Below are positions 7,557 to 64,000 of a stretch of DNA of 64,000 bases, one piece after another. Positions within the stretch are counted from its first letter, which is position 1. Every line of letters starts with the position of its first letter. The notes under the pieces were generated by a model. That model saw nothing but the letters and a program-made list of their open reading frames with translations. It was not told where the DNA came from and ran no database searches. Made by a program: the position numbers and the translations under genes. The DNA is from an uncultured Verrucomicrobiae bacterium (GTDB taxonomy: Bacteria; Verrucomicrobiota; Verrucomicrobiia; Limisphaerales; J093), in NCBI GenBank assembly GCA_963846445.1, contig CAWJWM010000014.1:21304-85303 (forward strand), in the 5' to 3' direction.

Positions 7557-7643
7557 CGAGGCTGCGCCTCAGACCGACGAGGCGCGTGAACCACTCGTCT
7601 GCGCTGGGCGCTCACCAGCATCACCGGCGCCCGACGCCTCGCT
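7555..7643 (+). repeat. module F (89 nt, bounded by AGCGAGGC...GCCTCGCT inverted termini)
   Basis: Homologous to 10829-10917 (reverse) and 45835-45916. It begins inside the stop codon TAG 7554-7556. Confidence 0.8.
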
Positions 7644-9094: not shown

Positions 9095-9149
9095 CCGGGT
9101 CAGGGGACCCGGCCTACAAGTCTGTAGGCCGCGTGCCCTCACGCGGCGC
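9095..9149 (+). repeat. module G (three consecutive short hairpins incl. GGCCTACA..TGTAGGCC and GCGTG..CACGC)
   Basis: Homologous to 13500-13569. A partial copy is at 18300-18325. Confidence 0.75.
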
Positions 9150-9195
9150 GACTTCTGACGCCGTGCATGGCCCCTTGTCGGAAAACATCCACCAA

Positions 9196-9334: not shown

Positions 9335-9399
9335 AGCGAGGCGTCGACTGCCGGTTCATGATGTCGAAGATTGGGATTTGGTCTGAGGCGCGCCTCGCT
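9335..9399 (-). repeat. module A, internally deleted copy
   Basis: AGCGAGGCG..TTCATGATGTCGAAGATTGGGATTTGGTCTGAGGCGCGCCTCGCT, 25 nt upstream of the radical SAM start codon. Confidence 0.8.
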
Positions 9400-9424
9400 A
9401 AGCGTCGAGTCTGATTCGCGTCCA

Positions 9425-10826
9425 ATGTCCAGTCGCGTCCTGCTCATCAGCGCCAACTGCTACACCGAGCCGTATGCCGTGTTCCCGCTGGGCTTGGCGC
9501 AGATCAACGCCGCCCTGCGCGCAGCCGGGACACCCGACGCGCTGGGTGGATTGCCTGGCAGACGCCGACCCGATCGAGCGGACGATCGACGAGTTCCAGC
9601 CGGACTTCGTGGGGGTCTCCCTGCGCAACATCGACGATGTCGCGTTTAAGAAGCGCGAGACGTTCTATGGCGCGCTCTTCGACTTGTGCGCGCGCATCCG
9701 CCAGCGCAGCACCGCGCGGATCATCGTGGGCGGGAGCGGTTTCTCGATTTTCCCGGAACGCCTACTCGAACGAAGTGGCGCGGACTTCGGCATTCAGGGC
9801 GAAGGCGAAGCCGGGCTGCTGGCGCTCCTCGCAGCCCTCGAAACCGGGAGCGATCACCGCGCCATTCCCGGCCTGGTCTATCGCGAAAACGGCCGGATCC
9901 GCCGCAATGCGCAGCGGCCCGATCGACTCGACCGCCCTGTTTTGGCCGAGGACCGGCCGGATCGGTTGGTGGACTTCTACCTCGCGCGCAGCCTCATGCT
10001 GAATGTGCAGACCCAACGCGGCTGCGCGCTCGAATGCTGCTACTGCGCCTACCCACTGATCGAGGGGAACCGGCACCGCCGCCGCCCGCCCGAACTCGTC
10101 GCCGACGAATTGGCCCAGCTCGCGGCTCGGGGCGCGCGCTATGTCTTCGTGGTGGACTCGGTGTTCAACTCCTCGCCCACGCACGTCGTCGAGACGTGTG
10201 AAGCCATCCTCGAGCGCGGCGTGAGAATCAAGTGGGGCTGTTTCCTCCGACCGCAAGGGCTCACTGCCGAACTGATGGCCGTCATGGCCCGCGCCGGCCT
10301 GACGCATATCGAGTTCGGTTCCGACAGCTTTTCGGATCCGGTGCTCGAAGCCTACCACAAGAACCTCGATTTCGACGATATCCGGCACTCAGCCCAACTG
10401 GCGTCGGATGCGAAGGTGGATCATTGCCATTTCCTGATTCTGGGCGGGCCGGGAGAGACTCGAGAGACACTGGGCGAAACCCTGGCCAATTCACGCCGGC
10501 TGCCGCGCGCCGTGATGCTGCCGATTGTGGGCATGCGCGTCTATCCGGGCACCTTGTTGCATGCGCGAGCCCTGGCCGAAGGCGCCATCACCCCGGACAC
10601 CGACCTGCTCGAGCCTTACCATTACATCGCCTCTGGACTGAGCGAGGCGTGGATTTTAGGGCGGCTGGCGGACTTCGCGAAGACCGACCCGACCTGGATC
10701 ATCGGCGAACCGCCACCGTCGTTTCTGCACCTCGTCGAGCGCCTGCGCCAGCGCGGCGTGGTCGGCCCGCTCTGGACCTATTTCGACATGCTCCAGCGGC
10801 TGCCCAACATGGGGGTCAAACCATAG
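9425..10826 (+). pseudogene. B12-binding-domain radical SAM enzyme; one apparent +1 frameshift near 9530
   Basis: The N-terminus MSSRVLLISANCYTEPYAVFPLGLAQINAALRAAG (frame 2) continues as HPTRWVDCLADADPIE...(frame 0). CxxxCxxC cluster motif GCALECCYCAY. Confidence 0.85.
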
Positions 10827-10828: not shown

Positions 10829-10917
10829 AGCGAGGCGTCGACTTCCGGTTGCCATGGCAACAGCCCAGCGCAAACGAACGGGTGACATACCTCGTCGGTC
10901 TGAGGCGGAGCCTCGCT
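10829..10917 (-). repeat. module F (89 nt)
   Basis: Its reverse complement aligns with 7555-7643. It starts 3 nt after the stop TAG 10824-10826. Confidence 0.8.
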
Positions 10918-13469: not shown

Positions 13470-13602
13470 GTGCATCTGGTTGTTGTCGGTGTTCTGTCGC
13501 CCGGTGAGGGCACCGGGCCTACAACGGATGGAGATTGCCGGTGTAGGCCGCGTGCCCCCACGCGGCGCATACTCGATTCCCACCGACAACCTCCAGATGC
13601 AC
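13470..13602. repeat. 133-nt element closed by a 22-nt imperfect inverted repeat and containing a module G copy (13500-13569)
   Basis: GTGCATCTGGTTGTTGTCGGTG (13470-13491) pairs with CACCGACAACCTCCAGATGCAC (13581-13602). Lies between the CLF-like and ACP genes. Confidence 0.7.
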
Positions 13603-14000: not shown

Positions 14001-14056
14001 AGCGAGGCTGCGCCTCGAACCAGCGAGGCGTGTTGCCAGATCGTTCGCGAGGGTCT
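14001..14056 (+). repeat. module F' (short F variant)
   Basis: AGCGAGGCTGCGCCTCGAACCAGCGAGGCGTGTTGCCAGATCGTTCGCGAGGGTC. The reverse complement of 63560-63618 is nearly the same. Confidence 0.75.
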
Positions 14057-34165: not shown

Positions 34166-34284
34166 TGGACCCAATCTCGATCCACAGTGTGTCCGCGTGC
34201 CCGGGTCGCCCAAGCGGCTGGGGAGCGTCCCGGCGTTGATGAACCGATGAGCCAATTCTGCTTGCTGGGCGCGGGTTTCATCAG

Positions 34285-34349
34285 ACCCGGACATCTCACC
34301 CGCGGACTGTCAGGTATGCCGCGACCGCCCCTCTGGTGAGATTTCCGGG
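34285..34349 (-). repeat. module H (65-nt long hairpin, CCCGGAAATCTCACC...GGTGAGATNTCCGGG)
   Basis: Its reverse complement is ~90 percent identical by eye to 38361-38424. Confidence 0.75.
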
Positions 34350-34359
34350 TGAGCGAGGT

Positions 34360-36494
34360 TCATTTCGCATCGAGGTTGATCTCTCCTGCCCAGTCGGGCG
34401 GCGGCGGGTTCTCCTGCAGGACTCGAATTTGACCCAGGTAGAACTGGGAGGGGCCGTCTGTCCCCCGCAGTCGACAGACTTCCTGGAAAGCCGCCTCCGC
34501 CACCCCCCAGGCGCGCCGCCGAAAATGGTGCAGACCGAGGGCGAACTGGTCCCGCCAGGACGCCGAAGCCGGATCGGACGGCGGCGCGAGTTCGAGAAGT
34601 TCGCACACTTCGACAACGCGGTCGAAGCCTTTGAACCGGAACTGGCCCACAGACCGGCTGACAACGTGCGGTTCGATTTGGTGAGAGAAATCGCGCGAGG
34701 CGAGGATGGACGTGCCCAGCCGTTGGTTGAGGCCCTCGAGACGTGAGGCCAGGTTCACGGCATCGCCGATGGCCGTGTACTGGAAGCGGTCCGGGCTCCC
34801 CAGGTTGCCCACGCAGACAGGCCCGGTATGCAGCCCGATCCGGGTCCGCAGAGGAAGTTCGGACGAGGTCTCGTCCAGCACCAGCGAACACTGGTTCAAT
34901 AGGAAAGCCGCCTGGCACGCCCGCGCGACGTGATCGTCGTTGTTCCTGGGGCGCGTTCCAAAGCGCGAAAATGGCGTCGCCGATCAGACTCACCACCGTG
35001 CCATCCTGCTCGTGGATACAGGCAATGGTCCGGGCGTAGTACTGGTTGAGCCAGTCCAGCAGACCGGCCGCGTCCATCCGTTCCGCACGCTTCGAGAAAT
35101 TGGCGATATCACTGTAGAGGATGCTGACCGTCTGCTCGCGCCCACCGGGGTGGAGCAACTCGGGGTGTTTGAGGAGGCGACCGACCTGTTTGGGCGAGAG
35201 GTAGAGCGCGAGCGATCGTTCGAGAACGCCGCTTTGGACTCGGGCCTTGGTTGCGTGAAACACAACTCCCCAGACCAGACCGGCAGGAATCTGCACGGCC
35301 AAAATGATGGCCCAGGGGAACCAGAGGCGCAGGCCGGTCTGCAGCGCGCACGCCCCCGCAAAGACCGCCACGGCAGATCCGACCGCCACCGCCAGTCCGA
35401 CCAGCGGATGCCAGCGCGTCAGGAGCACCCCGGCCGCCACACCGCTAAGGACAATCGCCAGCAAAGTCGGGATCATCGGTACCTCCCGCAGCCATCGACC
35501 CTCGATCAAATTAGCGCACGCGGTGGCATGGACCTCCACGCCGTCGAATCTCCGCCCGCCTGCGTACGGGCTGCCGGAACGTGTCGGCGTCGGGCGGGGC
35601 GAAGGCCGTCCCGGTAAACGACACCCCGCGGCGCTCGCCAATGAAGACAATGCGGTTGCTGAAGAACCCGTCGCAGGCGTTGCTCAAGACGCGCCAATAG
35701 GGCACAGGCTCGATCGTGCCGGGCGGACCGTAGTAATTCAGATGCCAACTTGTCGGCGGCGCGTTCGACCGCGCATTGAGGCCGGCACCGCCCGCCGCCG
35801 CCGCAACCCACGCCAGCGTGGGATAATTCGTTTGCGCCTCGTTCCGCCCCGCCGCATGGCCATCCGGAATCCATGGCAACAGCCGACGCACCGTCGTGTC
35901 TGGGTCCTTGAGGAGTTCGATCGCGCCGTGCCCGAGCGCCGCTGAAAGGAGCATGGGCTGCGGCAGGCGCAACAACGGCCGCGGCGGTTCGCTGCTCTCG
36001 CTTTGGAAGCGCAGACTGCTTCCAAGGACCACCCCGCCGGCGTCGCGGATGGCCGACGCCAGCGGCGTATAATCGACGCTGCGCTGCTCCTGGAAGAGAA
36101 TATCGAACACGACCAACCGGGCGCCGGCTCCGCGCAACCGCTCCACTACGCGCGCGTGGAGCGCTGGATCCCACGGCATGCCGTAGTCTTGTTGGTGGCG
36201 TCGATGCGAGTCATCGTCCAGGGCGACAATGACCACGTCTTCGGGCGCCGTTGGCAACCGAACGGAGCAGGCGAAGGGCAGATTGTAACTGACTCGGCGC
36301 AGGCCGGCCCCGATATAGGGATTGAGGAACACAAGGCCTGCCACGACGGTGAGCAGGCTGCCCACCAGAGCCCCGAAACCGTTCCGCAGCACTCGATCTG
36401 GCAGTCTCACAGCGCGTCCATCGACCGAGCCCGGGCCGGCATCTTCCCGCTCCTGCGTCGCGGGAAGATGCAGCGCCGCTGCGCGGCGCAACAA
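34360..36494 (-). pseudogene. CHASE2 sensor domain - TM - class III adenylate/guanylate cyclase; two apparent +1 frameshifts near 35573 and 34941; start 36494 or GTG 36410
   Basis: CHASE2-like N-terminus (VVIVALDDDS..VVFDILF..IVFIGE), then SPYAGGRRFDGVEVHATACANLIEG and TMs. Cyclase motifs ILYSDIANFS, IGDAIFALWNAP, RIGLHTGPVCVGNLGS, YTAIGDAVNLASRLE are spread over three frames. Confidence 0.8.
36441..36489 (-). repeat. module E (inverted), with compensatory change in hairpin 2 (TCTTCCCGC..GCGGGAAGA)
   Basis: ATCTTCCCGCTCCTGCGTCGCGGGAAGATGCAGCGCCGCTGCGCGGCGC. Confidence 0.75.
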
Positions 36495-36537
36495 CTTGAC
36501 TCATTGACTACAGATTTCATCGAGGAAGTCACTCTAG
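36478..36537 (-). repeat. module X
   Basis: GCTGCGCGGCGCAACAACTTGACTCATTGACTACAGATTTCATCGAGGAAGTCACTCTAG. Confidence 0.8.
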
Positions 36538-36772
36538 CCCGGATTTCTCACCACCGGGAAGATGACACGGAAATCCGGGCTGTGGCAAAACCGCGCCCGG
36601 ACAGGGGAAAACAAGGGTCAGAGCATCCCCGAAGCCGCCCTGGCTCGGCGACACTCTGTTGCCCGGTTCCATCCATCCACTCGGGCGCGGTTTTGCTTTT
36701 CTAGCGCGCATGGCTGCCTCTCCGGATGACATCTGCTTCGCGTTGCACAAAACCTGGTAGAAATGCGCGCTA
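36536..36772 (+). repeat. module D copy 1: ~237-nt structured element (candidate ncRNA or structured MITE)
   Basis: About 88 percent identical by eye to 44826-44993 over the first ~168 nt. Contains a 12-bp hairpin, a 15-bp long-range stem and a 10-bp 3' hairpin. Confidence 0.75.
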
Positions 36773-36857
36773 GCGAGGCGCGCCTCAGACCAAATCCCAA
36801 TCTTCGACATCATGAACTGCCCTTTCGCTTTCCTGTCCTTCTCTCCCGCGCCTCGCT
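36772..36857 (+). repeat. module A, full 86-nt copy with 11-nt terminal inverted repeats AGCGAGGCGCG / CGCGCCTCGCT
   Basis: Aligns with 63289-63374 (reverse), 44745-44825, 9335-9399 (reverse) and 40689-40745. Confidence 0.85.
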
Positions 36858-36861
36858 CCTT

Positions 36862-36934
36862 AGAATCCTTGACCCCTTCAACGCAGCATAGAAACTTGAC
36901 TTGTCTGCAACACATTTGACCGGTCAAGGATTCT
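36862..36934 (-). repeat. module B: 73-nt hairpin with perfect 13-bp stem AGAATCCTTGACC / GGTCAAGGATTCT
   Basis: The loop is the reverse complement (~83 percent identity by eye) of the loop at 63225-63271. Confidence 0.85.
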
Positions 36935-38359: not shown

Positions 38360-38426
38360 ACCCGGAAATCTCACCGGTGGGGCGGTCGCGGCATGCCTGA
38401 CAGTCAGCGGGTGCGATTTCCGGGTC
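38360..38426 (+). repeat. module H (long hairpin)
   Basis: CCCGGAAATCTCACCGGTGGGGCGGTCGCGGCATGCCTGACAGTCAGCGGGTGCGATTTCCGGG. Confidence 0.75.
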
Positions 38427-38616: not shown

Positions 38617-40691
38617 CTACTGCATCGCTTCCAAACAGTCCACCGGCAGCGTGGTCCCGCTCAGGCCCGTCACCACCAGGGCATGGAAACCGTCGCCGAT
38701 GCGCTCCGCTCGAGCACCGGCGCCGAAGCCGCTGCCGGACCGGACAGGTCGATCTCGCCCAAAGGAACGCCGTCCAGCTTGACGGCGACACGCCCGAACT
38801 CCGGTCCCCTCGGGAGCCAGAGGCGAAAGCCGCTGCCGCGGATGTTCCACTTCACCCGCTCGCGCGGGTTCTTGCAGAGCGCCCCGGTCCCAAAGCGCCA
38901 TTGGGAGCCGTCGGTCTTCTCGTAGGCGCCCTCGGCAACGCCCGCACCCGAGATCGCCTCGCTCGATAGCCACGTATGGACCGCAGGCTGCGGCGATCCC
39001 GTGACCTCCAGTTTGTCGACCGTCAGGTGCGTCCCCGGCTCGAGCAACAGCCCGATCGCCCCGGTCTCAGACGGGACGGCCCCCGACCAAACCGGCTGGC
39101 CCGAGATCGTCACAGCGGTCCGGTCCGCAGCGACCTCGATTCTGACGGCGCGCCGATCCTCAGGTGCAAGCGCGCCCTCAGCCACGACGGCGGCGTCGGG
39201 CGTCTTGCCTGCCTCGACCAGTCGCCACCGATCTCGAGTGAGCTCGAGGGCACGGTGGCGCGTCCAGCAGAGCGGGTGCGGTCGTCCGTCAGCGCGTCCT
39301 TCGGCGCCCAGCGGCATCTGACACGCCCACGCCAGGCGCGCCGTGCCGGAGCGCAGGACAACCTCCGCTGCCAGATCGAACGCGGCGTACGCGACGCGGG
39401 TGAGGCTGAGGGCGCGCCCGCCGTGCGCCGTGATGGTGAGATCGGACTTCCGCAACGGCTGCGTCCACGGACGCGACGCGGAGCCGATGGTTCCGACGCC
39501 GCCCTCGATGTGACGAGACGGGTAGAGCACGCGCATCGTGCCGTCGGTGTCGATGCGCGCGGCCAGCGTTTGGCCCCAAATCCCGTAGCCCTCGTGAGGC
39601 ACAGGCTCTGCGTGCCAGACGGACCCGTGCTGCCACAACTCCCATGCGTCGGGATCGAGCGCATGTTCGATCGGCGCGCGGAAGATGGCCTGGAAGTTCC
39701 GATTCAGCCCCACCGACGTACGCGGGTCGTAGACATAACCGGCGTGGGCGAACGCCGGAAAAGCCTCGATAGGCGACGGATAGTAGCGATCCCCTTCGAG
39801 ATCGGTGATGACGACCGGTTTGGACCATGTCCCGAGCGGGTCTGTGGCCCTCATGCCGATCTGGCCCCACGCGTAGTGCGCGCCCGAGTCCAGGTCGGAG
39901 ATCACAAGCCAGTCATTGGCGCGGCGGACCATCGAGCTGGCGTAGACGCGGCGATAGCGTGAGCCGGGCCCGGCCAGCCTCTGCCACTCCGAAGTCCGCA
40001 GGATAGGGCGCGGGCTCCGGTGGAACGGGCCCTCGGGCTTGTCGGCCCAGGCGTAGGCCACCCCGCTGTCGGCTCCACCGCTGGGAGTCGACGCATTGGC
40101 CCAGGTGGTGTTGGACGTGCACCAGTCGTAGGCCATGTGATACCGGTCATCGTGGTACACCACGCACACGTCCGGCGCGATGGAGGCGGGGTAGGCGTCG
40201 CCTTCGAACCGGAAGCCTGAATCGTCGAAAACGGGTCCCACCTGTTTCCAGGTCTGACCCTGATCGACCGAGCGGAAGACCCTGCAGTGCGTGGGCTCAC
40301 CCTGCGGCACAAGGGCGTAGCCTTCGTAGTAGAAGCCGACGTAGGCGTACCAGCGGTTCGACACCGGATCGATCAGCAACGACACGTTGACGGGCCATTG
40401 GAACGGCGCGGCTCCCTTGACGAAGGGGTTGCCATCCGCCCGCCGGAACGAATCGAACGAAGGGTCGCCCAGGATCGGGTGCCGCATCCAGGCGTCGGCG
40501 TTCGCGGCCTGCGCGAAGTCGAGGGCGGTCGTTTGCATCGGCGGCTGCTTCCACAGAGGCGGCCACTGCGGCACGACGACGCCGGTCTTCGTCCCCGCGC
40601 CCGTCGCTGGCAGCACCGCCGCCGCGCAGACCGCGGCAGCCAGGATGCCGAGCGATGCGCGCCTCCAGCCAACCCAGAATCTCGTCGTCAT
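38617..40691 (-). pseudogene. large secreted protein of unknown function (possible beta-propeller glycosidase-like N-terminus, lectin-like C-terminus); probable 1-nt deletion-type frameshift near 38705; GTG 40706 is an alternative start
   Basis: ORF 38670..40706 with signal peptide ASLGILAAAVCAAAVLPATG. The tail ..APVLER continues more plausibly in another frame as IGDGFHALVVTGLSGTTLPVDCLEAMQ, ending at 38617. The 5' UTR and first codons derive from module A. Confidence 0.6.
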
Positions 40692-40745
40692 GAAGAAGCC
40701 TTTCACTGTCTCGCCCCTGTCTCCCGCGCCTCGCTCTCTGGAGTG
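40689..40745 (+). repeat. module A fragment serving as 5' UTR and start codon of the minus-strand gene 38617..40691
   Basis: The minus strand reads AGCGAGGCGCGGGAGACAGGGGCGAGACAGTGAAAGGCTTCTTCATGACGACGAGATTCTGGG. This aligns with module A AGCGAGGCGCGGGAGAGAAGGACAGGAAAGCGAAAGGGCAGTTCATGATGTCGAAGATTGGG. Confidence 0.7.
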
Positions 40746-40747
40746 AC

Positions 40748-40811
40748 CCTCTTTTGAGATCTGTTGTCAATGAGTCAAGCTTTTGCGCTGCGCCGCGGCG
40801 CCCGTTACGGG
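40748..40811 (+). repeat. module X (its TTGAC-containing strand faces gene 38617..40691)
   Basis: CTGGAGTGACCCTCTTTTGAGATCTGTTGTCAATGAGTCAAGCTTTTGCGCTGCGCCGCGGCGC. Confidence 0.8.
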
Positions 40812-42959: not shown

Positions 42960-44765
42960 CTATTCGGTCGCGATCCAGCGCGTGTAGGCACGTTCGCCCA
43001 GATACTCGTAACCGCGGTTCTCGTCCGAGGTGCCGGCGAGCAATGCGTGCATGAGACCGTTGCGCTCGACGAGGACCGTGTGGAGGATTCTGCGCTCCGG
43101 GTTTTCTTGCAGGAGGAATTGGACGCGCCCTCCCAGAGCAGAGTGGAGGTGGAGACCGGCGGCGTTGGTCCGACTGCTGATCGCGAAGGACGCGCGGAGT
43201 GCGGCGAGCATCGCGTGGCTGCGTCCCCATGTGCCTCCCTCGGGGCTGACGAAGGGTTTCCCGTCGAGCAGCGCAACGGCGTCGTTGTAGGCGAAGACGC
43301 AGAGACACCGCCGATCGCCGGTGTCGAGCCATCGGGCGAGCTTTGTGGCGTGGCCGCGCGCGGCGTCGAAGGCGTAGGTGCTGTCGAGAAACGCGATTCG
43401 CACGACGTCGCTGGGGATCTCATCGAGGGCGTTGAGGTAGCCGAAAGTCAGGCTTCCACCGCCGCTGTGGCCGGTGAGGACCAGCTCGAGTTGGTGATTC
43501 GGAAGAACTCGCTTCACGCGGGCGATCAGGTCCGGGATGGCGTGATCGCCGTGCTGATGGCGCCAGGCAGGCCAGCTTCTGGTATTGGCTTCGAGGTAAG
43601 CGATGACCACTGTGTGGTTCGTAGCGAGCGCACGCAGGAACCGTACTTGCGCGCCGATGTGCTGAGCGTCGAAGCGCCAGTCGTCGCCGGGCCGGGGCGC
43701 GCGTCCGATGGTTTGGGCCGTGGTATTGCCGTTGGGCAGGGCGTACAGGACCAGCAGGACCGGTTTATCTGGGGGGAAGTCCTCCACACCTGGAGCGTTG
43801 AGATGCACTGTCACGCCGGGATCGAGCGCGACATCGGCGGTCTGTTCGCCGAAGGCGCCGGTGGGGTTGAATTCCACTGCGGTTGTGGGCGAGCGATGGT
43901 CTCGATCGGGCAGCGGTGCCGGCGGATTGGTCGCATAGCGCGATTGGGCGAGCGCGCCTTCATCGCTCAACAGGCCGGCCAGGCTGGGGTCGGCGAGGAC
44001 CTGGGCCACGGACGCAGTCGAGCCGTTGACTTGCAGCGTTTGCTGCACGAGCCGCACACCGTGGCTGTAATCCACCCAGTTGACGGTGTGGCCAGAGTAG
44101 AGCGGCTGGATCGCGACTCCGTTGGTTTGATGCCAGCCGTAGATGGCGACCTTGTGTGGCGTCCGAGCGAGTCCCGCGGAAACCACGACATCCTTCTTGT
44201 GGCCTGCGACGAGGGAACCCAGCGGCTGGGTTGCCAGCCAGGCCAGCCGCTGGGTTCGAACGACATCGTTGTGTGCGACGAACACGGGCACGGTTGTCAT
44301 GGCTGGACTGGGAGGAATCGGGGCCGGCGGGAGTTGGACTTTCGCCGCGGCGTGGATCGCATCTGTCATCTTCCGCGTGGGGAGGCAACAGCCGAGTTGG
44401 TCAACGAGGTGTTGGGCGGTCATGGGGGTCAGCGGCACGAGAAGCGCGTCGTCGTTCGAGCCCACGCAGAGGTATTCCGGAGCGGCAAAGAACGTGGCAC
44501 GATTCGTCCGCCCGTCGGCGACGTTCGTGACCGTGACGGGGCAGAATCGCCGCAGGAAGTCAGGCACATTGCCAGAGAGGACCTGGCCCAGGATCGCCTG
44601 TTCCCGTTGCGCAGGTGCCAGCGGCTCGATGGAGCTGGCGAAGGCGTGTCCGGAAGGGGCGTGAAGGGCGCGCTCGGGCAGGACAAGCGTCTGCGCCAGG
44701 GCCAGCGGACGGACACAGAAAACGAGGGTGCCGAGCGCGAACCAAGCGAGGCGCGCCTCGACCAA
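42960..44765 (-). CDS. secreted hypothetical protein with C-terminal alpha/beta-hydrolase-like region (GHSGGG elbow)
   Basis: 601-aa ORF with signal LAWFALGTLVFCVRPLALA. The TTG start at 44765 lies inside a module A copy. The ATGATG at 44785 could be the real start if one base is missing near 44755. Confidence 0.7.
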   Translation of the reverse strand: MVEARLAWFALGTLVFCVRPLALAQTLVLPERALHAPSGHAFASSIEPLAPAQREQAILGQVLSGNVPDFLRRFCPVTVTNVADGRTNRATFFAAPEYLCVGSNDDALLVPLTPMTAQHLVDQLGCCLPTRKMTDAIHAAAKVQLPPAPIPPSPAMTTVPVFVAHNDVVRTQRLAWLATQPLGSLVAGHKKDVVVSAGLARTPHKVAIYGWHQTNGVAIQPLYSGHTVNWVDYSHGVRLVQQTLQVNGSTASVAQVLADPSLAGLLSDEGALAQSRYATNPPAPLPDRDHRSPTTAVEFNPTGAFGEQTADVALDPGVTVHLNAPGVEDFPPDKPVLLVLYALPNGNTTAQTIGRAPRPGDDWRFDAQHIGAQVRFLRALATNHTVVIAYLEANTRSWPAWRHQHGDHAIPDLIARVKRVLPNHQLELVLTGHSGGGSLTFGYLNALDEIPSDVVRIAFLDSTYAFDAARGHATKLARWLDTGDRRCLCVFAYNDAVALLDGKPFVSPEGGTWGRSHAMLAALRASFAISSRTNAAGLHLHSALGGRVQFLLQENPERRILHTVLVERNGLMHALLAGTSDENRGYEYLGERAYTRWIATE

Positions 44766-44825
44766 AACCCAATCTTCGACATCATGAACCGCCCTTTCGT
44801 TTTCCTGCCCTCCTCGCGCCTCGCC
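44745..44825 (+). repeat. module A (81 nt) overlapping the 5' end of gene 42960..44765
   Basis: AGCGAGGCGCGCCTCGACCAAAACCCAATCTTCGACATCATGAACCGCCCTTTCGTTTTCCTGCCCTCCTCGCGCCTCGCC. Confidence 0.8.
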
Positions 44826-45060
44826 AGCCCGGATTTCTCACCACGGGGAAGATGACAACGAAATCCGGGCTGTGGCAAAACCGCGCCGCACAGGGGAAAA
44901 TGAGGTTCAGAGCGCTCCCGAATCCTCCCGGGTGCAGCGACACTCTGTTGCCCAGTTCCCTCCATCCACTCGGGCGCGGTTTTGCTTTTCTAACCTGCAT
45001 GTTGACTTCCTTTGAGGACTCCGGCTTCGCGGTGGAAAAAGTGGTGAGAAATGCAGGCTA
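44826..45060 (+). repeat. module D copy 2 (~235 nt)
   Basis: See copy 1. The 3' hairpin is CCTGCAT...ATGCAGG here, versus GCGCGCAT...ATGCGCGC in copy 1. Confidence 0.75.
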
Positions 45061-45789
45061 GAACAGCGTCGGAAAGACCTGGATCAGGTCCTCGATGTTC
45101 GTCGCGGTCGCGAGGAGAAAGCGCGCCTCGAACTCGGCGTGGAAATCGCGCTCGAGGCCGGCGGTCTCCGGCGGAGCGCCGGGACGGTTCAGCACGGCGG
45201 CGACGATCTTGCCGGAGGCGAACGCGGCGACGATCGCATTCGCGTCGCCGACCAGACGGAGGTCCGGAAGCAGGAGGGCGATTCGCGGCGTGGGCCGGCG
45301 CCAGGATTCGAGGGCCTGCACCCCCGCGGGCAGACCGATCACGCTCACCCAAAGACCGGCGTCCGGGTGCTTCGACGCCAGTGCGTCCCAGGCGCCTTCC
45401 ACCGTCATGAAACTCAGCGGCGTGGTCACGTCCGGCGGCAGCGGGACGGACGCCGGGTTCTGTCGCGCAGCGGGGCTCAGTTCGGGGTAATCGACGCCGG
45501 CCAGGCGGATCCGATCGCCCCAACCGTCCTTCAACCCCCGGATGGCGGCCTCCTCGAAGGCGCGGACTTCCGGGGGTTGGCCAGGCATCCGGCCGAAGGG
45601 ATTGGCGACGATGAGCGCCGTTTGGCCGGGGGTCTGTTGGGCCACGTATTCGCCCAGGACGCGCAAGGCAATTTCGCGCCGGTCCAGCGCGCGCCCGCGC
45701 ACGACCCGGTCCTGGGTGCGGAACATGCGCCAACCCATGACGGCGGCGGCAACGAGAAGAACCGCGACAAGAACAGGTTTAGCCTTCAT
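45058..45789 (-). CDS. membrane-anchored periplasmic hypothetical protein (possibly substrate-binding-like)
   Basis: ATG at 45789 with N-terminal anchor MKAKPVLVAVLLVAAAVMGW. 243 aa. Confidence 0.6.
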   Translation of the reverse strand: MKAKPVLVAVLLVAAAVMGWRMFRTQDRVVRGRALDRREIALRVLGEYVAQQTPGQTALIVANPFGRMPGQPPEVRAFEEAAIRGLKDGWGDRIRLAGVDYPELSPAARQNPASVPLPPDVTTPLSFMTVEGAWDALASKHPDAGLWVSVIGLPAGVQALESWRRPTPRIALLLPDLRLVGDANAIVAAFASGKIVAAVLNRPGAPPETAGLERDFHAEFEARFLLATATNIEDLIQVFPTLF

Positions 45790-45834
45790 GGAACCGGCTG
45801 ACGGAGTATGGGAAATGCCTTTTCGGGAATGCTG

Positions 45835-45916
45835 AGCGAGGCTTCGCCTCAGACCGAGGTGGAGCGTGAACAACTCGTCTGCGCTGGGCGGCCACCACGA
45901 TCACCGGCGTCCGACG
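45835..45916 (+). repeat. module F (3' terminus missing)
   Basis: AGCGAGGCTTCGCCTCAGACCGAGGTGGAGCGTGAACAACTCGTCTGCGCTGGGCGGCCACCACGATCACCGGCGTCCGACG. Confidence 0.75.
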
Positions 45917-50791: not shown

Positions 50792-53023
50792 ATGCTGACC
50801 ACCAAAAAGTGGCGCTTCGCCATTGCCGTCGAGGTCACGACGATTCGTCGCGGCATTGCCGGATCTCTCGGCGCGCTGCTGGCGGTTCTTGTCCTGACAG
50901 GATGCTCTCCCCCCGGACGCCGGAACCTCCTGCAAGGCGAACGGCTCATCCGCCAGGGCCGCCCCGCGGAGGCGATTCGGCCACTTCAGGAGGCCGTGAC
51001 CCTGTTGGCAACCAACGCCCCGGCTTGCGCCCAGGCCTGGAACTTCCTCGGGCTGGCCTACCACTACGCCAATCAACCCGCCGGCGCCGCTCAGGCCTAC
51101 CAAAACGCCCTCGCCCATGATTTCAATCTGGTCGTCGTTCGCTTCAACCGCGGCTGCCTCTTCCTGGAGCAGAACAACCTCCCGGCCGCCATCAACGAAT
51201 TGACCACGTACACCACACACCAGCCCAAAGACGCCCTCGGTTGGACAAAGCTGGGCGCCGCTCAGATGCGCTCCCGGCAGGTCGAGCCCGCAGAAGCCAG
51301 CTTCCGACGCGCGCTCGACTTGAGTCCGCGCCCGGCCCTGGCGGCTGAAATCCTCAACAATCTCGGTTTGTGCAGCGTCCTCCGCCGACGCCCCGACGAT
51401 GCCTTGAAGTACTTCAACTCCGCGCTCCGACAAGAAACCAACCATCCGCCTGCCCTGCTCAACCAAGCCATCATCGCGCATCAGCAGAATCACGACCTCC
51501 CGCTGGCCCTCGACCGATATCGCGCCTACCTCAACACGCCCAGCTCCCGCCCCCACGCCGCCGCAGTCTCCAATCTCGCCAGCCAGATTGACACGGAGCT
51601 TCGTTTGCGCGCCGCAGCCACAAGCGTGGTGCCAACTCTGGTCTTGGTCACGAACTTGCTGCCTCAACCGACGAACGCTCTCCTGACCGCGCGGCCTCCC
51701 GCAGAGCCGCCTGTGGCGGTGACCAGCCCGCCACTCCCGGCGCTGCAACCGACCCCACCCTCGCCCGCCACCAGTGTTGTCCACCTTGCCGCCTCGCCTC
51801 CCGCGCCTGCGACGGCGTCCACCCCGGTCGCTCCGGAACCGCGCACTCCCCACGGGCCGACCAACACGGCCCAGCCTCCGCCCATCGCGAAGATCGAGGT
51901 CCCCACGCCCGCGCCTCCGACCGCGCCCGTCACAGCGTCCGCCACCGTCGCTCCGGAACCGCGCACCGCGCCCGCACCCACGAACCAGGTGCAACCTCCC
52001 GCAGCGGTCGTCAGAGTCGAGCCGCCACCAACGCCTGAAGCGGAAGCCCCCTCAGCTCCCGTCGAAGTGGTGCGCCTCGAAACGGAGCGGGAAGTCAAGA
52101 CCGCCCAGGACATCGCCGTTCCCGTTCGAACCGCTCTTCTGCCCACAGCACCCCCTTCGGAACCCGCGCCCAGGGTCGCCTCGCCCTCCCCTGCGCCTCC
52201 GTCGACAATCACCCCGACCCCGGCGCCTTCGGCTGCGAGGCCGGCGGTTGATTCGAGATCGAGTTCCCCGCCGCCGCCGAAGAAGAAATCCCTCGTGCAG
52301 CGGCTCAATCCGTTGGGCTGGATCGGAGGTAAGGACAAGACCGGAGAGCCGCCGCGGATGGAGACTGCGACCACACCACTAGCGAGTCCCCGGGGAGTCG
52401 CTCGAGAATCGGGCGGTACGACGAGTTCCGCCGTGTCGAGTCCGCCCGTGACGCCCCGCCCCGCGACTGCGCCTGCCCCCGCAACGCCCCCGGCGCCGGC
52501 GGTTGCCCGCTACAATTACCTGCGTCCGGGAGTCCCCGCCCCCGGCAATCGCGCCCGCGCCCAGGACGCCATCGCCCAAGGGATTCAGGCGCACAGGAGC
52601 GGGCAATACGCTCAAGCCCTGGCGGCGTACAAAGCGGCTGTCCGGGAGGATCCATCGTTCTTCGAGGCGCAGTATAACCTCGGGGTCGCCGCCTTTGATG
52701 CCGGCAGTTGGTCGGAAGCTCTGGTGGCGTTCGAGCAGGCGCTGGCCCTGAGGCCCGAGGATTCCAGCGCGCGGCTCAACTTCGCGTTATCGCTCGACCG
52801 AGCCAACTACCCGGCGGACGCGGCCCAGGAGCTCGAACTGCTGTTGGTCCGGGCGCCCGGGAGCATCGACGCCCACGCCACGCTCGCCAACCTGTACGCC
52901 GAGAAACTGGCGGACAACGACAAGGCGCGGGTTCACTACACCAAGGTGCTTCAACTGAATCCGCGGCACCCGCAAGCGGCGGCCATCCGCCGCTGGCTCA
53001 CGGTCCACCGGCTCCGCCCGTAA
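50792..53023 (+). CDS. TPR-repeat lipoprotein with ~300-aa proline-rich disordered centre
   Basis: Lipobox LVLTGCS. TPR-like repeats at both ends (AWNFLGLAYHYANQPAGAAQAYQNAL, FEAQYNLGVAAFDAGSWSEAL). ATG 50774 is an alternative start. Confidence 0.8.
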   Translation: MLTTKKWRFAIAVEVTTIRRGIAGSLGALLAVLVLTGCSPPGRRNLLQGERLIRQGRPAEAIRPLQEAVTLLATNAPACAQAWNFLGLAYHYANQPAGAAQAYQNALAHDFNLVVVRFNRGCLFLEQNNLPAAINELTTYTTHQPKDALGWTKLGAAQMRSRQVEPAEASFRRALDLSPRPALAAEILNNLGLCSVLRRRPDDALKYFNSALRQETNHPPALLNQAIIAHQQNHDLPLALDRYRAYLNTPSSRPHAAAVSNLASQIDTELRLRAAATSVVPTLVLVTNLLPQPTNALLTARPPAEPPVAVTSPPLPALQPTPPSPATSVVHLAASPPAPATASTPVAPEPRTPHGPTNTAQPPPIAKIEVPTPAPPTAPVTASATVAPEPRTAPAPTNQVQPPAAVVRVEPPPTPEAEAPSAPVEVVRLETEREVKTAQDIAVPVRTALLPTAPPSEPAPRVASPSPAPPSTITPTPAPSAARPAVDSRSSSPPPPKKKSLVQRLNPLGWIGGKDKTGEPPRMETATTPLASPRGVARESGGTTSSAVSSPPVTPRPATAPAPATPPAPAVARYNYLRPGVPAPGNRARAQDAIAQGIQAHRSGQYAQALAAYKAAVREDPSFFEAQYNLGVAAFDAGSWSEALVAFEQALALRPEDSSARLNFALSLDRANYPADAAQELELLLVRAPGSIDAHATLANLYAEKLADNDKARVHYTKVLQLNPRHPQAAAIRRWLTVHRLRP

Positions 53024-53143: not shown

Positions 53144-55981
53144 ATGGGAAAGGAACTCATCATCGCGGAAAAGCCGTCGGTGGCCGCCGACATCGCGAAG
53201 GCGTTGGGCGGATTCAAACGGCACGAGGATTACTTCGAAAGCGATCAGTTCGTTCTTTCGTCGGCGGTGGGCCATTTGCTCGAACTGGCGGTGCCCGAGG
53301 AGTTCGAGATCGCACGCGGCAAGTGGACATTCACCCACCTCCCGCACTTGCCCCCGCGGTTCGACCTGGCGCCGATCGAGAGAAACGCGAACCGGCTCAA
53401 GGTGCTGCAGAAGCTGATCCGGCGAAAGGACGTCGACCGACTGATCAACGCGTGCGATGCGGGACGAGAAGGGGAGTTGATCTTCCGCAACGTTGCCGGG
53501 TACACGCAAGCCAAGCAGCCCATCCGCCGCCTCTGGCTCCAATCGATGACCCCTGCCGCCATCCGGGATGCCTTTGCCCACCTCCGAACCGACGACGAGA
53601 TGCGGCCTTTGGCGGACGCCTCGATCTGCCGGGCGGAAGCCGATTGGCTGGTGGGGATCAACGGCACGCGGGCGATGACCGCGTTCAATAACCGCACCGG
53701 CGGGTTCAATAAGACGACCGTCGGCCGCGTCCAGACGCCCACCCTGGCCATCGTGGTCGAACGCGAACAGCGAATTCGGGCGTTCCGCCCGAGAGACTAC
53801 TGGGAGGTCCATGCGACGTTCGCCGCCGCCAGCGGAAGTTACAAGGGCCGCTGGTTCGATGCGAAGTTCACCAAGGACACCGACGGCGCCGACGGCGAAA
53901 AAGACGATCTCAGGCCGGAGCGGATTTGGGATCAGGCCCGGGCCGAGGCCATCCGCGCCAAGTGCCTGGGCCGCCCGGGCGTGGTCACCGAGGAAAGCAA
54001 ACCCACCACGCAGCTCTCGCCGCTCCTCTACGACCTCACCAGCCTCCAGCGGGAAGCGAATAACCGCTTCGGCTTCGCCGCGGCGAGCACGCTCAAGATC
54101 GCCCAGGCCCTCTACGAAAGACACAAGGTCCTCACCTATCCGCGCACCGACTCGCGCGCTCTGCCGGAGGACTACGAGGCTACAGTGAAAGCCACACTCG
54201 AGTCCTTCCGCGAAGGCGCCTATGGCGCATTTGCTCAGCACATCCTCGATCATCACTGGGTGCGGCCCAACAAGCGAATCTTCAACAACGCCAAGGTCTC
54301 GGACCATTTCGCGATCATTCCGACGCCCCTGGCGCCCAAGCACCTCACGGAGGCCGAGCAGAAGATCTACGACATGGTGGCCAAGCGGTTTCTCGCGGTG
54401 TTCTACCCGGCCGCGGAGTTCCTGGTCACCACCCGCATCACACGGGTCGAGGCCGAGCCGTTCAAGAGCGAAGGCAAGGTCATGGTCAACCCAGGCTGGC
54501 TCGTGGTTTACGGGCGCGCTGCCCAGGACGACGACTCTCCCAGCCTGCCCCGCGTCGCGCCCAACGAGACCGTCTCGACCGTCGAGCTTGTCGTCCAGGC
54601 CTGCCAGACCAAACCTCCCGCCCGGTTCACGGAAGCCACCCTGCTCTCAGCCATGGAGGGCGCGGGCAAACTCGTCGAGGACGACGAGTTGCGGGAAGCC
54701 ATGGCCGAGAAGGGCCTGGGCACGCCTGCCACCCGCGCCCAGATTATCGAGGGCCTCATCGCAGAAAGCTATCTCCTCCGCCATGGGAAGGAACTGCAGC
54801 CGACTGCGAAGGCCTTTTCGCTGATGGTCCTGCTGAACGGGCTCGGGGTGGAAGCCCTCACCAAACCGGAACTGACGGGCGATTGGGAGTATAAGCTCAA
54901 ACAGATGGAACGTGGCCGTCTGAAACGCGACACGTTCATGAAGGAGATCCGCGGGCTGGCCGAAGACATCGTCCGGCGCGCCAAGGCCTACGAACACGAC
55001 ACCATCCCCGGCGATTTCGGCCTCCTCAGCGCGCCTTGCCCAAAATGCGGCGGCGAAGTGCACGAGAACTACAAGAAATTCCAATGCCAGAATCCAGCCT
55101 GCGATTTCGGCCTCTGGAAGATCGTCTCCGGACGCCAGTTCGAGGCGGCGGAAATCGATCAGTTGATCACCCAGAAGCAGATCGGCCCGCTCCAGGGGTT
55201 CCGCAGCAAACTGGGCAAGCCTTTCGCAGCCGTGATCCGGCTGAATCCCGACTACAGGATCGAGTTCGATTTCGGCAACGACACTCAGGACGGTCAGCAC
55301 GGTGGCCCTGCGGCCGAGGTCGATTTCACCGGCAAGGAACCCGTGGGCGCCTGCCCCAAATGCCGCCACCGGGTTTTCGAGAACGGTATGCACTACGTCT
55401 GCGAGAAAGCCGTCGGCGCCAAACGGGCGTGCGATTTCCGGGCCGGCGCGGTCATCCTGCAGCAACCCGTCGACCGCACCCAGTTCTCGAAGCTCCTGGC
55501 CCAAGGAAAAACCGACCTGCTCAAAGGCTTCGTCTCGAAGAGGAACGGCCGGAAATTCGAGGCCTTCCTCGTCCTCAAAGACGGCGCCGTCCGTTTCGAG
55601 TTCGTCCCTCGACCGGCACGGACCCGAAGCGACCCCGCCGGCAAGAAATCGGCCCCCTCGAACGCCCCGCTCGATTTCACCGGCCAAGAATCGCTCGGCG
55701 CCTGCCCGCTCTGCGGCGGACGTGTCTTCGAATCGGACCGGCACTACCTCTGCGAGCGAACACAGGACAAAACCAAACCCTGCAAGTTCAAGACCGGACG
55801 CGTCATCCTGAGTCGCCCCATCGAGCGTGCCGAACTCGGCGCCCTCCTGACCCGAGGACGCACCGAGTTGTTGTCCCAGTTCACCTCCAAAACCGGACGC
55901 CCCTTCTCCGCCTACCTCGTCATCGGCGAGGGCGGCAAGGTCGGCTTCGAGTTCCCACCCCGGGATGGCGAGCCGGGCTGA
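53144..55981 (+). CDS. topB: DNA topoisomerase III with three C-terminal zinc-ribbon repeat units
   Basis: LIIAEKPSVAADIAKAL, GHLLEL, CDAGREGELIF, LTYPRTDSRALP. Three CPxCGG..-type repeat units, each ending ..FEF/FDF. Confidence 0.85.
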   Translation: MGKELIIAEKPSVAADIAKALGGFKRHEDYFESDQFVLSSAVGHLLELAVPEEFEIARGKWTFTHLPHLPPRFDLAPIERNANRLKVLQKLIRRKDVDRLINACDAGREGELIFRNVAGYTQAKQPIRRLWLQSMTPAAIRDAFAHLRTDDEMRPLADASICRAEADWLVGINGTRAMTAFNNRTGGFNKTTVGRVQTPTLAIVVEREQRIRAFRPRDYWEVHATFAAASGSYKGRWFDAKFTKDTDGADGEKDDLRPERIWDQARAEAIRAKCLGRPGVVTEESKPTTQLSPLLYDLTSLQREANNRFGFAAASTLKIAQALYERHKVLTYPRTDSRALPEDYEATVKATLESFREGAYGAFAQHILDHHWVRPNKRIFNNAKVSDHFAIIPTPLAPKHLTEAEQKIYDMVAKRFLAVFYPAAEFLVTTRITRVEAEPFKSEGKVMVNPGWLVVYGRAAQDDDSPSLPRVAPNETVSTVELVVQACQTKPPARFTEATLLSAMEGAGKLVEDDELREAMAEKGLGTPATRAQIIEGLIAESYLLRHGKELQPTAKAFSLMVLLNGLGVEALTKPELTGDWEYKLKQMERGRLKRDTFMKEIRGLAEDIVRRAKAYEHDTIPGDFGLLSAPCPKCGGEVHENYKKFQCQNPACDFGLWKIVSGRQFEAAEIDQLITQKQIGPLQGFRSKLGKPFAAVIRLNPDYRIEFDFGNDTQDGQHGGPAAEVDFTGKEPVGACPKCRHRVFENGMHYVCEKAVGAKRACDFRAGAVILQQPVDRTQFSKLLAQGKTDLLKGFVSKRNGRKFEAFLVLKDGAVRFEFVPRPARTRSDPAGKKSAPSNAPLDFTGQESLGACPLCGGRVFESDRHYLCERTQDKTKPCKFKTGRVILSRPIERAELGALLTRGRTELLSQFTSKTGRPFSAYLVIGEGGKVGFEFPPRDGEPG

Positions 55982-61500: not shown

Positions 61501-61706
61501 TCCTGCCCCTGGCTCTGGCCACCGGCGCCGGCGCCGGCGCCATGAACGCCATCGGCACCTCGGTGCTGGGCGGGATGATCACCGGCACAGCGCTCGTGAT
61601 CCTGTTCGCCCCGCTCTTCTTCGTCCTGATCGAGAAGACGTTCGGCAGAAAGAGGATCGCAGACAAGATCCCCAGCTCGACGCCGAGTGCGCCGGAGATT
61701 CGCTGA
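58532..61706 (+). pseudogene. RND multidrug efflux transporter (HAE1, AcrB-like); one apparent +1 frameshift near 60182
   Basis: MLSRFFLDRPVFAWVIAIV... (frame 2) to ..RLRYVAVL, then FFLIVAGLGFLFVRMPSSFLPDEDQG... (frame 0) to the stop at 61706. Confidence 0.85.
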
Positions 61707-61707
61707 C

Positions 61708-63213
61708 ATGAACCTGAACGCATTTGTTCTCACTCACCCGGGTATGGTTCCCCGCAATGCTCTCAAGATGACCGCGCGCTCGGTGCGCCGCCTGTTCGTT
61801 CCTCTGAGGCGGGCCTCGCCAGGTCTCTTGATCGCCCTGGCCGGATGCACTCTGGCTCCGAAATACCAGCGCCCGCCGGCTCCCGTCCCGTCCGCCTGGC
61901 CCCAAGGATCCGCCTACGCCCCGAACACAACGGCATCGAGCCTCCCCGAGGCCCGCGACCTGGGATGGCGAGAGTTCTTCCCGGACCCGAGACTCCAACA
62001 GGTCATCGCCATCGCCCTGGCCAACAACCGCGACTTGCGGTTGGCCTCCCTGAATGTCGAGCGCGCTCGGGCCATGTACCGCATTCAACGAGCCGAATTG
62101 TACCCGGCGCTCGATGCCATCGGCAGCGGCAGCAAAGCGCGCATCCCCGCCGACCTCTCGAACTCGGACCAGCGACAAACCATCGAACGCTACGACGCGA
62201 GTCTCGGGCTCGCTTCCTGGGAAATCGATTTCTTCGGCCGCATCCGCAGCTTCAAGAACCGCGCCCTGCTCGAATACCTCGCCACCGAACAGGCCCGCCA
62301 CAGCGCCCAGGTTCTCCTGGTCTCTTCGGTCGCCAACGCCTACCTCGCCCTCGCAGCAGATCGGGAGAATCTCGGACTCTCCGAAACCACACTCGCCGCA
62401 CAGCAGAGCGCCTACGAACTGGTCAGACGACGACAGGAGCTTGGACTCGTCCCCGAATTGGATCTCTACCGCGCCCGGATCCCACTGGAGGTTGCCCGTC
62501 GGGACGTCGCGCTCTATACCCAACAGGCCGCACACGCCGAAAACGCCCTGAACCTCCTGGTCGGCACCCCCGTCCCCAGCGAACTGCTGCCCGCCGAATT
62601 GGGCCACATCAGCCCGCCCGCGACGGTCGCCGCCGGTCTGCCTTCCGACGTCCTGCTCCGCCGGCCGGACGTGGTTCAGGCCGAGGATATGCTCAAGGCA
62701 GCCTATGCCGATATCGGCGCCGCCCGAGCAACCTTCTTCCCGCGCATCTCCCTCACTGCCGCCGTCGGCACCGCCAGCAGCGAACTGTCCGGACTCTTCA
62801 CGTCCGGTTCGGGCGCCTGGAGTTATGCGCCCCAGGTCGTCATGCCCATCTTCGACGCCCGCACGTGGTCCGCACTCAAGGCCAGCAAGGTCCAGAGACA
62901 AATGGCCGTCGTCCAATACGAAAACGCCATTCAGAACGCCTTTCGCGAAGTGGCTGATGCCCTCGCGGTCCAGGGCACGGTGGACCAAGAGTTGGCGGCA
63001 CAACAAGCGCTGGTGCACGCCTATGCGGAAACTTACCGCCTCGCCAATTCGCGCTACGAAAAGGGCATCGACAGCTACCTGGGCGTCCTCGACGCTCAGC
63101 GCTCGCTGTTTGCTTCGCAGCAGGTCCTGGTCTTCCTGCGCCTCGCCAAGCTCGAGAACGACGTCAGGCTTTACGCCGTCCTCGGCGGCGGCTGGCAGCC
63201 CGAAACCCGCTAG
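61708..63213 (+). CDS. RND efflux outer-membrane factor lipoprotein (NodT/OprM family)
   Basis: Lipobox LIALAGCTLAP. Two OEP-type repeats. The ATG lies 2 nt after the AcrB-like stop. Confidence 0.9.
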   Translation: MNLNAFVLTHPGMVPRNALKMTARSVRRLFVPLRRASPGLLIALAGCTLAPKYQRPPAPVPSAWPQGSAYAPNTTASSLPEARDLGWREFFPDPRLQQVIAIALANNRDLRLASLNVERARAMYRIQRAELYPALDAIGSGSKARIPADLSNSDQRQTIERYDASLGLASWEIDFFGRIRSFKNRALLEYLATEQARHSAQVLLVSSVANAYLALAADRENLGLSETTLAAQQSAYELVRRRQELGLVPELDLYRARIPLEVARRDVALYTQQAAHAENALNLLVGTPVPSELLPAELGHISPPATVAAGLPSDVLLRRPDVVQAEDMLKAAYADIGAARATFFPRISLTAAVGTASSELSGLFTSGSGAWSYAPQVVMPIFDARTWSALKASKVQRQMAVVQYENAIQNAFREVADALAVQGTVDQELAAQQALVHAYAETYRLANSRYEKGIDSYLGVLDAQRSLFASQQVLVFLRLAKLENDVRLYAVLGGGWQPETR

Positions 63214-63284
63214 AATCCTTGACCTGTCAAATGTGTTGTAGATAAGTCAAGTTGTTGTGCTGCGTTAAAAGGGTCAAGGATTCT
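63212..63284 (+). repeat. module B: 73-nt hairpin with perfect 13-bp stem, starting inside the stop codon of the outer-membrane factor gene
   Basis: AGAATCCTTGACC (63212-63224) pairs with GGTCAAGGATTCT (63272-63284). Confidence 0.85.
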
Positions 63285-63288
63285 CAGG

Positions 63289-63374
63289 AGCGAGGCGCGG
63301 GAGACAAGGGCAGGAAAACAAAAGGGCGGTCCATGATGTCGAAGATTGGGGTTTGGTCTGAGGCGCGCCTCGCT
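63289..63374 (-). repeat. module A, full 86-nt copy (inverted)
   Basis: AGCGAGGCGCGGGAGACAAGGGCAGGAAAACAAAAGGGCGGTCCATGATGTCGAAGATTGGGGTTTGGTCTGAGGCGCGCCTCGCT. Confidence 0.85.
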
Positions 63375-63432
63375 AGAGTGACTCTCTTTTTGAAATCCGC
63401 TGCAAATGAGTCACGTTTTTGCGCCGCGCAGC
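63373..63432 (+). repeat. module X
   Basis: CTAGAGTGACTCTCTTTTTGAAATCCGCTGCAAATGAGTCACGTTTTTGCGCCGCGCAGC. Confidence 0.8.
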
Positions 63433-63559
63433 CTCGCTCAACCCGCAAAGCTAAAGCGCCAGAGGACTGGCGCAGTCTCCCGCAGCCGCGGGACTGGCGC
63501 CTTTTCGGACGTCTCCGAACCGCGCGAAGCGTTTTGGAGTGCGGCAGTCTTCTGCCGCT

Positions 63560-63618
63560 CTGAGACCCTCGCGAACGATCTGGCAAGACGCCTCGCCGGT
63601 CTGAGGCGCAGCCTCGCT
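63560..63618 (-). repeat. module F' (short F variant) containing the stop codon of the last gene
   Basis: The reverse complement reads TAGCGAGGCTGCGCCTCAGACCGGCGAGGCGTCTTGCCAGATCGTTCGCGAGGGTCTCAG, which aligns with 14001-14056. Confidence 0.75.
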
Positions 63619-64000
63619 AAAACTCGAGCGGCACGCGCACCACGATCGCTCCCATGACTTCGCCCGGTCGGAAATCGTGCCGGGGACTGCGCGGATGCCG
63701 GTTGTGGCAATCCACACACGACGACAGGCTCGCCACGTCGGCGTAGACCGCGGTGAAGTAACTGCGGCCTCCAAGCGTTTCCTCGGTGTAGAAGCCACGC
63801 TCCGGATTCCGCGCCACGCTCTCGAGTCCGGCCTGTTCCACCTCCGTCTGCGGGCCATGACCGGGGTCGATCGGCCATAACGAACGCAGGACATACGAGA
63901 ATTCCGCCCCCCGCTTCTGAATGCTCGATGCCGCCTCGCGCAGCAGTTGAGCGTGCGTCGGCAGACAATCCCGCTCCTTCCACTGCTCCGAAACCTCGAG
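63617..64000 (-). CDS. DUF3365 (Tll0287-like) domain protein, 5'-truncated by the window edge
   Basis: The frame is open from 64000 to the TAG at 63617-63619. C-terminal pattern YFTAVYADVASLSSCVDCHNRHPRSPRHDFRPGEVMGAIVVRVPLEF. Confidence 0.65.
   Translation of the reverse strand, partial: LEVSEQWKERDCLPTHAQLLREAASSIQKRGAEFSYVLRSLWPIDPGHGPQTEVEQAGLESVARNPERGFYTEETLGGRSYFTAVYADVASLSSCVDCHNRHPRSPRHDFRPGEVMGAIVVRVPLEF

Follow-up and report, generated by a model that had tools for sequence, protein, structure and literature searches.

The 64,000-nucleotide stretch of DNA analysed here (the window; positions are counted from its first base), part of a contig from an uncultured Verrucomicrobiae bacterium, contains five copies of an 86-nt repeat, module A, that has inverted ends and an internal ATG. 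[quoted passage not shown] The original prediction for this DNA favoured such a cassette, a portable 5' untranslated region, start codon and signal-peptide n-region; that idea sits poorly with the findings that the two window genes that begin in the module use it in different frames and that most of the 27 copies tallied below lie away from gene starts.

Four of the five window copies contain the 19-mer CATGATGTCGAAGATTGGG exactly, at 9357(+), 36796(-), 44768(-) and 63332(+), and the fifth is diverged; none of 100 shuffles of the window, whose G+C content is 65.6%, gave any match to this 19-mer. The 11-nt terminal inverted repeats predicted for module A are perfect in both full window copies (AGCGAGGCGCG/CGCGCCTCGCT) and in 16 of the 18 full-length copies in the larger set described below, among which the mean pairwise identity is 91% and most pairs are 95–100% identical. 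The GC palindrome expected at the left end, GAGGCGCGCCTC, is present at 44748-44759, and the four copies with the 19-mer are all where the original prediction placed them (coordinates in Table 1). The diverged copy had been placed at 40689-40745, and its true span is 40651-40736 on the minus strand, with about 74% identity to the consensus and both ends intact. On one strand of the module a purine-rich tract that resembles a ribosome-binding site (RBS) has its AAGGG 6 nt 5' of an ATGATG, and the frame from this ATG is open through the right (ATG-downstream) inverted end; the palindromic CATG gives an ATG on the other strand as well. The peptide MMSKIG.WSEARLA was thought to be encoded by every copy, and this fails for the diverged copy and for the copy at 44745, which is one base short between 44759 and 44760 (GGTC-GAGG where the consensus has GGTCTGAGG). 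When either strand is folded, the 11-bp terminal stem is the sole structure obtained, the interior showing no significant structure. No meaningful Rfam match to module A came up with either gathering or permissive thresholds, and no tRNA genes were found.

The window sequence is present in activated-sludge metagenomes. A metagenome scan with a 24-base pattern found 19 further loci (L numbers below), all of them in one activated-sludge assembly, and BLAST within these loci found four extra module A copies. Copy number was estimated by placing Logan contigs of sludge metagenomes on 44300-45300 and comparing the summed depth of the module core with that of the unique flanks. In three runs the flanks had depths of 5.5, 19.7 and 12 and the core a summed depth of 1,000–7,000, giving module/flank ratios of 185–364 (about 20 in a thinly covered fourth metagenome); these ratios are upper bounds, as related populations may add to the module depth. 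The depth points to about 10^2 copies of module A per genome equivalent, which agrees with the few hundred per genome that five copies in 64 kb extrapolate to. Module A is absent from relatives at ~70% protein identity, in which the orthologous loci have different upstream neighbours; these relatives carry a sequence like module C, the usual neighbour of A, and a GAGGC-NNN-GCCTC hairpin motif.

Module A is part of a mosaic. The intergenic regions of the window hold short inverted-repeat modules of several kinds (A, B, C, D7 and E) and the REP-like family D4, and C followed by A is a common composite. Element E at 44826-45059 is precisely absent from the sister-strain runs X1 and X8, in which the joint skips 241 nt, and the E-type composite at 36536-36771 is missing from a syntenic metagenome contig (L093) that is otherwise 97% identical to 34302-36538; each of the two E insertions (231–236 nt) adjoins an end of module A, at a GCT^AG junction. 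This presence and absence of E is direct evidence that the module system moves now or did so recently, and that CTAG is its target. The tetranucleotide CTAG occurs 11 times in 64 kb, compared with 203 expected from base composition and 36 under a Markov model, and module junctions coincide exactly with 7 of the 11, the repeats making up 4.2% of the window (binomial P ~7e-8). Several of the junction CTAGs overlap TAG stop codons (45058, 63210), and the module junctions are CTAG or more generally YTAR. The D7 family shares its ends, AGCGAGGC(T)GCGCCTCAGACC ... GCCTCGCT, with module A and is of similar length with a different interior, which suggests that several families may have been moved by one enzyme.

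Such an element could have arisen from a larger one. That module A is the relic of the 5' end of a gene or insertion sequence, that is, an internally deleted insertion sequence that kept the transposase RBS and its first codons (MMSKIG.WSEARLA), would be compatible with the MITE-like reading as an account of origin, since MITEs commonly derive from insertion sequences by internal deletion with both ends kept, and an RBS-like tract and ATG just inside one end is the usual insertion-sequence layout. As a reading in its own right we consider it quite improbable: a search of 5.8 billion clusters with a ten-sequence profile of the 14-residue peptide yielded no protein at E <= 10, and just 46 candidates had any short word in common with the peptide (a 14-residue query has low sensitivity), and neither the window nor the metagenome loci hold two AGCGAGGC ends spaced as in an insertion sequence. 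The alternative form of the original prediction, in which the 5' end of a gene has been mobilised, gained no positive support, the peptide starting no protein family in those clusters.

Two secreted-protein genes of the window do begin inside copies of module A, as was originally proposed; no start codon downstream of the module preserves the signal peptide of either. The first encodes a 673-aa protein. The ATG at 40691 in the diverged copy is indeed its start, although the gene is 38670..40691 and not the 690-aa gene 38617..40691 first described; the N-terminal MTTRFWVGWRRAS is module-encoded, and the hydrophobic core of the signal peptide follows directly. In homologues of this protein the signal peptides are unrelated; the conserved domain starts at about residue 55. 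The second gene, 42960..44765, encodes a 601-aa protein whose homologues are found in metagenome bins of Verrucomicrobiota and Limisphaerales and have ordinary, unrelated 20–25-aa signal peptides ending AQT. Its first seven codons (M/L-VEARLA) come from the right end of module A and are followed by WFALGTLVFCVRPLALAQT. The 44745 copy was said to overlap the start of this gene, and the start is inside the copy; it is reached in the window by way of TTG 44765, the only in-frame start that spares the signal peptide, because the base missing from this copy puts the module ATGATG out of frame. The 673-aa and 601-aa genes therefore use different frames of the palindromic end in the window. In the sister strains X1 and X8, contigs that are tied to the unique coding flank and cross the module to reach the unique upstream gene have the missing base, so the open reading frame (ORF) there begins at the module ATGATG and gives MMSKIGFWSEARLAWF...; in these strains module A alone makes up the entire spacer from the stop codon of the upstream gene, 45058..45873, to the start of the next gene. 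Two other histories were rejected. Simple insertion of A between intact, adjacent 45058..45873 and 42960..44765 fails in that, once A is removed, the downstream gene has no start codon, and paralogy does not explain the common 5' region, the 673-aa and 601-aa proteins being mutually unrelated.

It is very improbable that these gene-repeat junctions are chimeric joins at a high-copy repeat. The window does come from a metagenome-type assembly, and the single-base indels relative to the sister strains at 44759/60 and ~9527 may be assembly errors; however, X1 record 1 and X8 record 17, from two other runs, span gene, module A and upstream gene in the identical arrangement, L093 confirms the 36.5-kb locus, and the ORFs run seamlessly into signal peptides.

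A third copy, the short variant at 9335, stops 25 nt short of a radical SAM gene's start codon, as had been noted, and ATG 9425 was confirmed as that start. We note that this B12-binding radical SAM gene (9425-10826) is frameshifted in the window, with its N-terminal frame starting at ATG 9425 (ORF 9371..9649) and its main ORF at 9474..10826. A sister-strain contig is one letter shorter at ~9527, in a GGG run, and has a single radical SAM ORF; the frameshift reflects a real pseudogene or else an indel of the assembly.

The context of 27 copies was tallied in the window and the 19 metagenome contigs. The right end faces a gene start in the sense direction at 9335 (+25 nt), 44745, 40651, L090a and L090b, and is more loosely at one in L083, where the true start is likely ~150 nt downstream, and in L079, before a truncated ParE-like toxin gene; sense gene starts are thus found at 5–7 of the 27 copies, which lie directly at the start or up to 30–150 nt before it. 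The right end faces the 3' end of a convergent gene at 0–35 nt in L082, L085, L086, L088 and L092, and another repeat module in 12 copies; in two its context is unclear. On the left side, five C+A composites lie 15–96 nt upstream of divergent genes, and the opposite-strand ATG is the start codon in two copies, each for a secreted or membrane protein: an M14 peptidase in L084 (MNRPLAPAH...) and, from a diverged copy, an ORF in L082b (MTTQPRS...). Every fusion that clearly needs the module ATG is in a protein with a signal peptide. Contrary to what the original prediction would lead one to expect, this small sample of 27 copies showed no evident bias to gene starts or to one orientation.

Two of the metagenome loci are instructive. 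In L090 both spacers of an mlaE-mlaF operon hold module A in the sense direction; the frame of an MlaE-like ORF is open from the module ATG of L090a onward, and in L090b a diverged C+A lies exactly between the TAG stop of mlaE and the start of mlaF, ending ~27 nt before the latter. In L079 module A (~778-862) lies between a truncated antitoxin gene of the 'addiction module' type (...RLAAGEE) and the gene of the ParE-like toxin, which is without its first ~20 residues, and ~150 nt of the pair have apparently been replaced by the module.

The arrangement in L090, with sense copies in both examined spacers of one operon, is what might be expected of a selected mobile expression cassette, similar to the REP2 (CREN) repeats of Neisseria, that drives or co-regulates genes and supplies the signal-peptide n-region. 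The AAGGG 6 nt before an ATG whose frame is open outward, the 5–7 sense copies at or shortly before gene starts, the preservation of AAAGG and ATG in the diverged copy used as a start, the C-like sequence in a relative at 70% protein identity, and the precedents of REP2 and the Borrelia IR (PMC3184786) all agree with it. We nevertheless regard it as unlikely: no sigma-70-type promoter was recognised in C+A+B (by a consensus that may differ from the one used by this phylum), copies that face 3' ends, divergent genes or other repeats are as numerous as those that face gene starts, the module end is read in different frames by the two window genes, and the module also interrupts the toxin-antitoxin pair of L079. 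There is likewise only a small chance that A, together with C, is a mobile two-way translation-start donor, its CATGATG offering an ATG on both strands, one of them led by the RBS-like tract. Insertion would then be a recurrent, selected rewriting of the start codon and n-region, and perhaps of the expression, of secreted-protein genes, and thus a transposable version of the Neisseria REP2/CREN idea.

Among the copies the same ATG and RBS-like tract are conserved, as are the first 14 codons, which could mean that the module encodes a conserved micro-protein or leader peptide starting MMSKIG. This we find scarcely credible, in that past codon 14 the frame enters the adjoining DNA, so that length and sequence vary from locus to locus with no common stop codon, the copies are 95–100% identical at all codon positions with no sign of purifying selection, and no matching protein was found in the database.

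Several observations weigh against module A as a MITE-like repeat that is only occasionally co-opted. About one fifth of the copies have a gene start at the central ATG on one strand or the other, which is high for pure accident. The diverged copy that serves as a start has kept AAAGG, its spacing and the ATG while the rest drifted, and the diverged intergenic copy of L090b has lost AAAGG. The breakpoints of three independent truncated copies are all no more than ~12 nt from the ATG. As the pattern used to find the extra copies itself contains the ATG, part of the conservation of this codon among them is built in; the metagenome contigs are short and fragmented and break at repeats, and the sample of copies is small. 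As to mobility, no empty site was seen for module A itself, the window and the metagenome loci yielded no autonomous element bounded by AGCGAGGCGCG ends, and no consistent target-site duplication or direct repeat surrounds the module A copies; the frequent CTAG/YTAR junctions would fit a CTAG duplication of 4 bp that nested insertions later blurred.

On the reading that we favour, modules A, B, C, D7 and E would stack into mosaics at CTAG/YTAR junctions, in a genome from which CTAG appears otherwise to be almost absent. Such targeting would concentrate insertions at gene boundaries, beside older elements and immediately behind TAG stop codons. Where a copy is inserted within or adjoining a gene's first codons, the module ATG or a nearby TTG may replace the start codon, and the fused gene would gain up to 14 module-encoded residues. 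Fusions would persist mainly in secreted-protein genes because the signal-peptide n-region tolerates N-terminal change, and the RBS-like tract, ATG and open outward frame of module A would be the reason that it is sometimes co-opted as a new start. We infer that A transposes, that a transposase acts on it, that the module start codons are used and that signal-peptide tolerance has selected the fusions that remain.

Table 1. Modules of the window and the genes that begin or end at them
Feature	Position	Strand	Remarks
Module A, full, 86 nt	36772-36857	-	
Module A, full, 86 nt	63289-63374	+	C upstream (63210-63288), B downstream (63375-63438)
Module A, 81 nt	44745-44825	-	Distal inverted end with 1 mismatch; ATGATG at 44785-44780; TTG at 44765
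Module A, short variant, 65 nt	9335-9399	+	Internal deletion; variant recurs in L091
Module A, diverged	40651-40736	-	~74% identity to consensus; both ends, AAAGG and ATG retained
Module C	36858-36934	-	Inverted ends AGAATCCTTGACC; usual left neighbour of A
Module C	63210-63288		Begins at the CTAG containing the stop codon of gene 61687..63213
Module B	40738-40803	+	Directly upstream of diverged A copy; usual polarity relative to AGCGAGG end
Module B	63375-63438		Directly after full A copy 63289-63374
Element E, ~231-234 nt	44826-45059		19-nt inverted ends AGCCCGGATTTCTCACCAC; inserted at GCT^AG at left end of A
E-type composite	36536-36771		Between B and A
Family D7	7555-7643	+	
Family D7	10829-10917	-	
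Family D7	14001-14056		
Family D7	45835-45916		
Family D7	63563-63623		Also given as 63589-63618(-)
Gene, 673-aa secreted protein	38670..40691	-	Weak GH43-like match
Gene, 601-aa secreted protein	42960..44765	-	No Pfam match
Gene upstream of 42960..44765	45058..45873	-	TAG stop within CTAG junction

Other repeats are present in the window. The REP-like family D4, a TGTAG followed by the hairpin GCCGCGTG-NNNN-CACGCGGC, is found at 9123-9174, 13542-13568 and 18300-18351. A 67-nt inverted repeat (34284-34350 and 38360-38426), whose arms are 91% complementary and 4 kb apart, flanks the repeat cluster at 36.4–36.9 kb, and these arms are another repeat module that also matches metagenome loci. Direct repeats in coding sequence at 51789-51999 (120-nt period, in a proline/alanine-rich stretch) and at 55313-55731 (351-nt period, zinc-ribbon-like units with CPxC..., in the 945-aa ORF 53144..55981) look like ordinary protein repeats outside the module system.

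The modules make up a new and very abundant family of nested, CTAG-bounded small repeats in a poorly studied phylum, the Verrucomicrobiota, in activated sludge. They provide clean cases of a repeat that takes over the start codon and first signal-peptide residues of a gene and, in one case, of an intergenic spacer that is wholly repeat. They are also a warning for annotation, as gene starts, small ORFs and contig breaks near modules are unreliable and indels in the window shift frames. If either of the start-supplying readings weighed above were true, the module would be a mobile route to rewire N-termini and expression. As it stands, the gene starts inside module A look like a known side-effect of small mobile repeats, in-frame fusion of MITE ORFs with host ORFs having been described (PMC10969869).

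Among known systems, module A is most like the bacterial MITEs (Correia/CREE of Neisseria, ERIC, RUP, Nezha, Chunjie and others), which are likewise shorter than 300 bp, carry terminal inverted repeats but no transposase, occur as tens to hundreds of dispersed and mostly intergenic copies at gene boundaries, have sibling families with the same ends, and occasionally fuse with host ORFs. Module A has this character in being short (86 nt, with variants of 65 and 81 nt) and without a transposase, and in having inverted ends and many near-identical copies; unlike them, it shows no consistent target-site duplication and no parent insertion sequence in the window or loci, lies in nested arrays with CTAG junctions, and has an interior that is not a long hairpin. 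The REP/BIME mosaics of enterobacteria and pseudomonads are also intergenic arrays of several types of short palindromic unit, but a REP is a 20–40-nt hairpin with a GTAG head, whereas module A is 86 nt long with a terminal stem only; it is the separate family D4 that fits the REP pattern. No RAYT gene was seen in the window, where no search was aimed at genes of this type.

The Neisseria REP2 (CREN) repeats, which with the Borrelia IR (IR-A) are precedents for a repeat that supplies gene starts (PMC3184786), have no terminal inverted repeats and a defined promoter, and most of their copies are directly upstream of genes. Module A shares with REP2 an RBS-like tract and ATG, and differs in its inverted ends, in showing no recognisable sigma-70-type promoter in C+A+B, and in that its sense-upstream placement is confined to a minority of copies (5–7 of 27). 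The Rickettsia RPE and the intragenic ERIC/RU elements are mobile palindromic repeats that are fused in frame and add a conserved peptide (PMC10969869, PMC2759123). Internal in-frame insertion of this type was not found for module A, one copy of which disrupts a toxin-antitoxin pair (L079); RPE lie inside ORFs and add internal segments, whereas the module A fusions are at the extreme N-terminus, where the module supplies the start codon itself.

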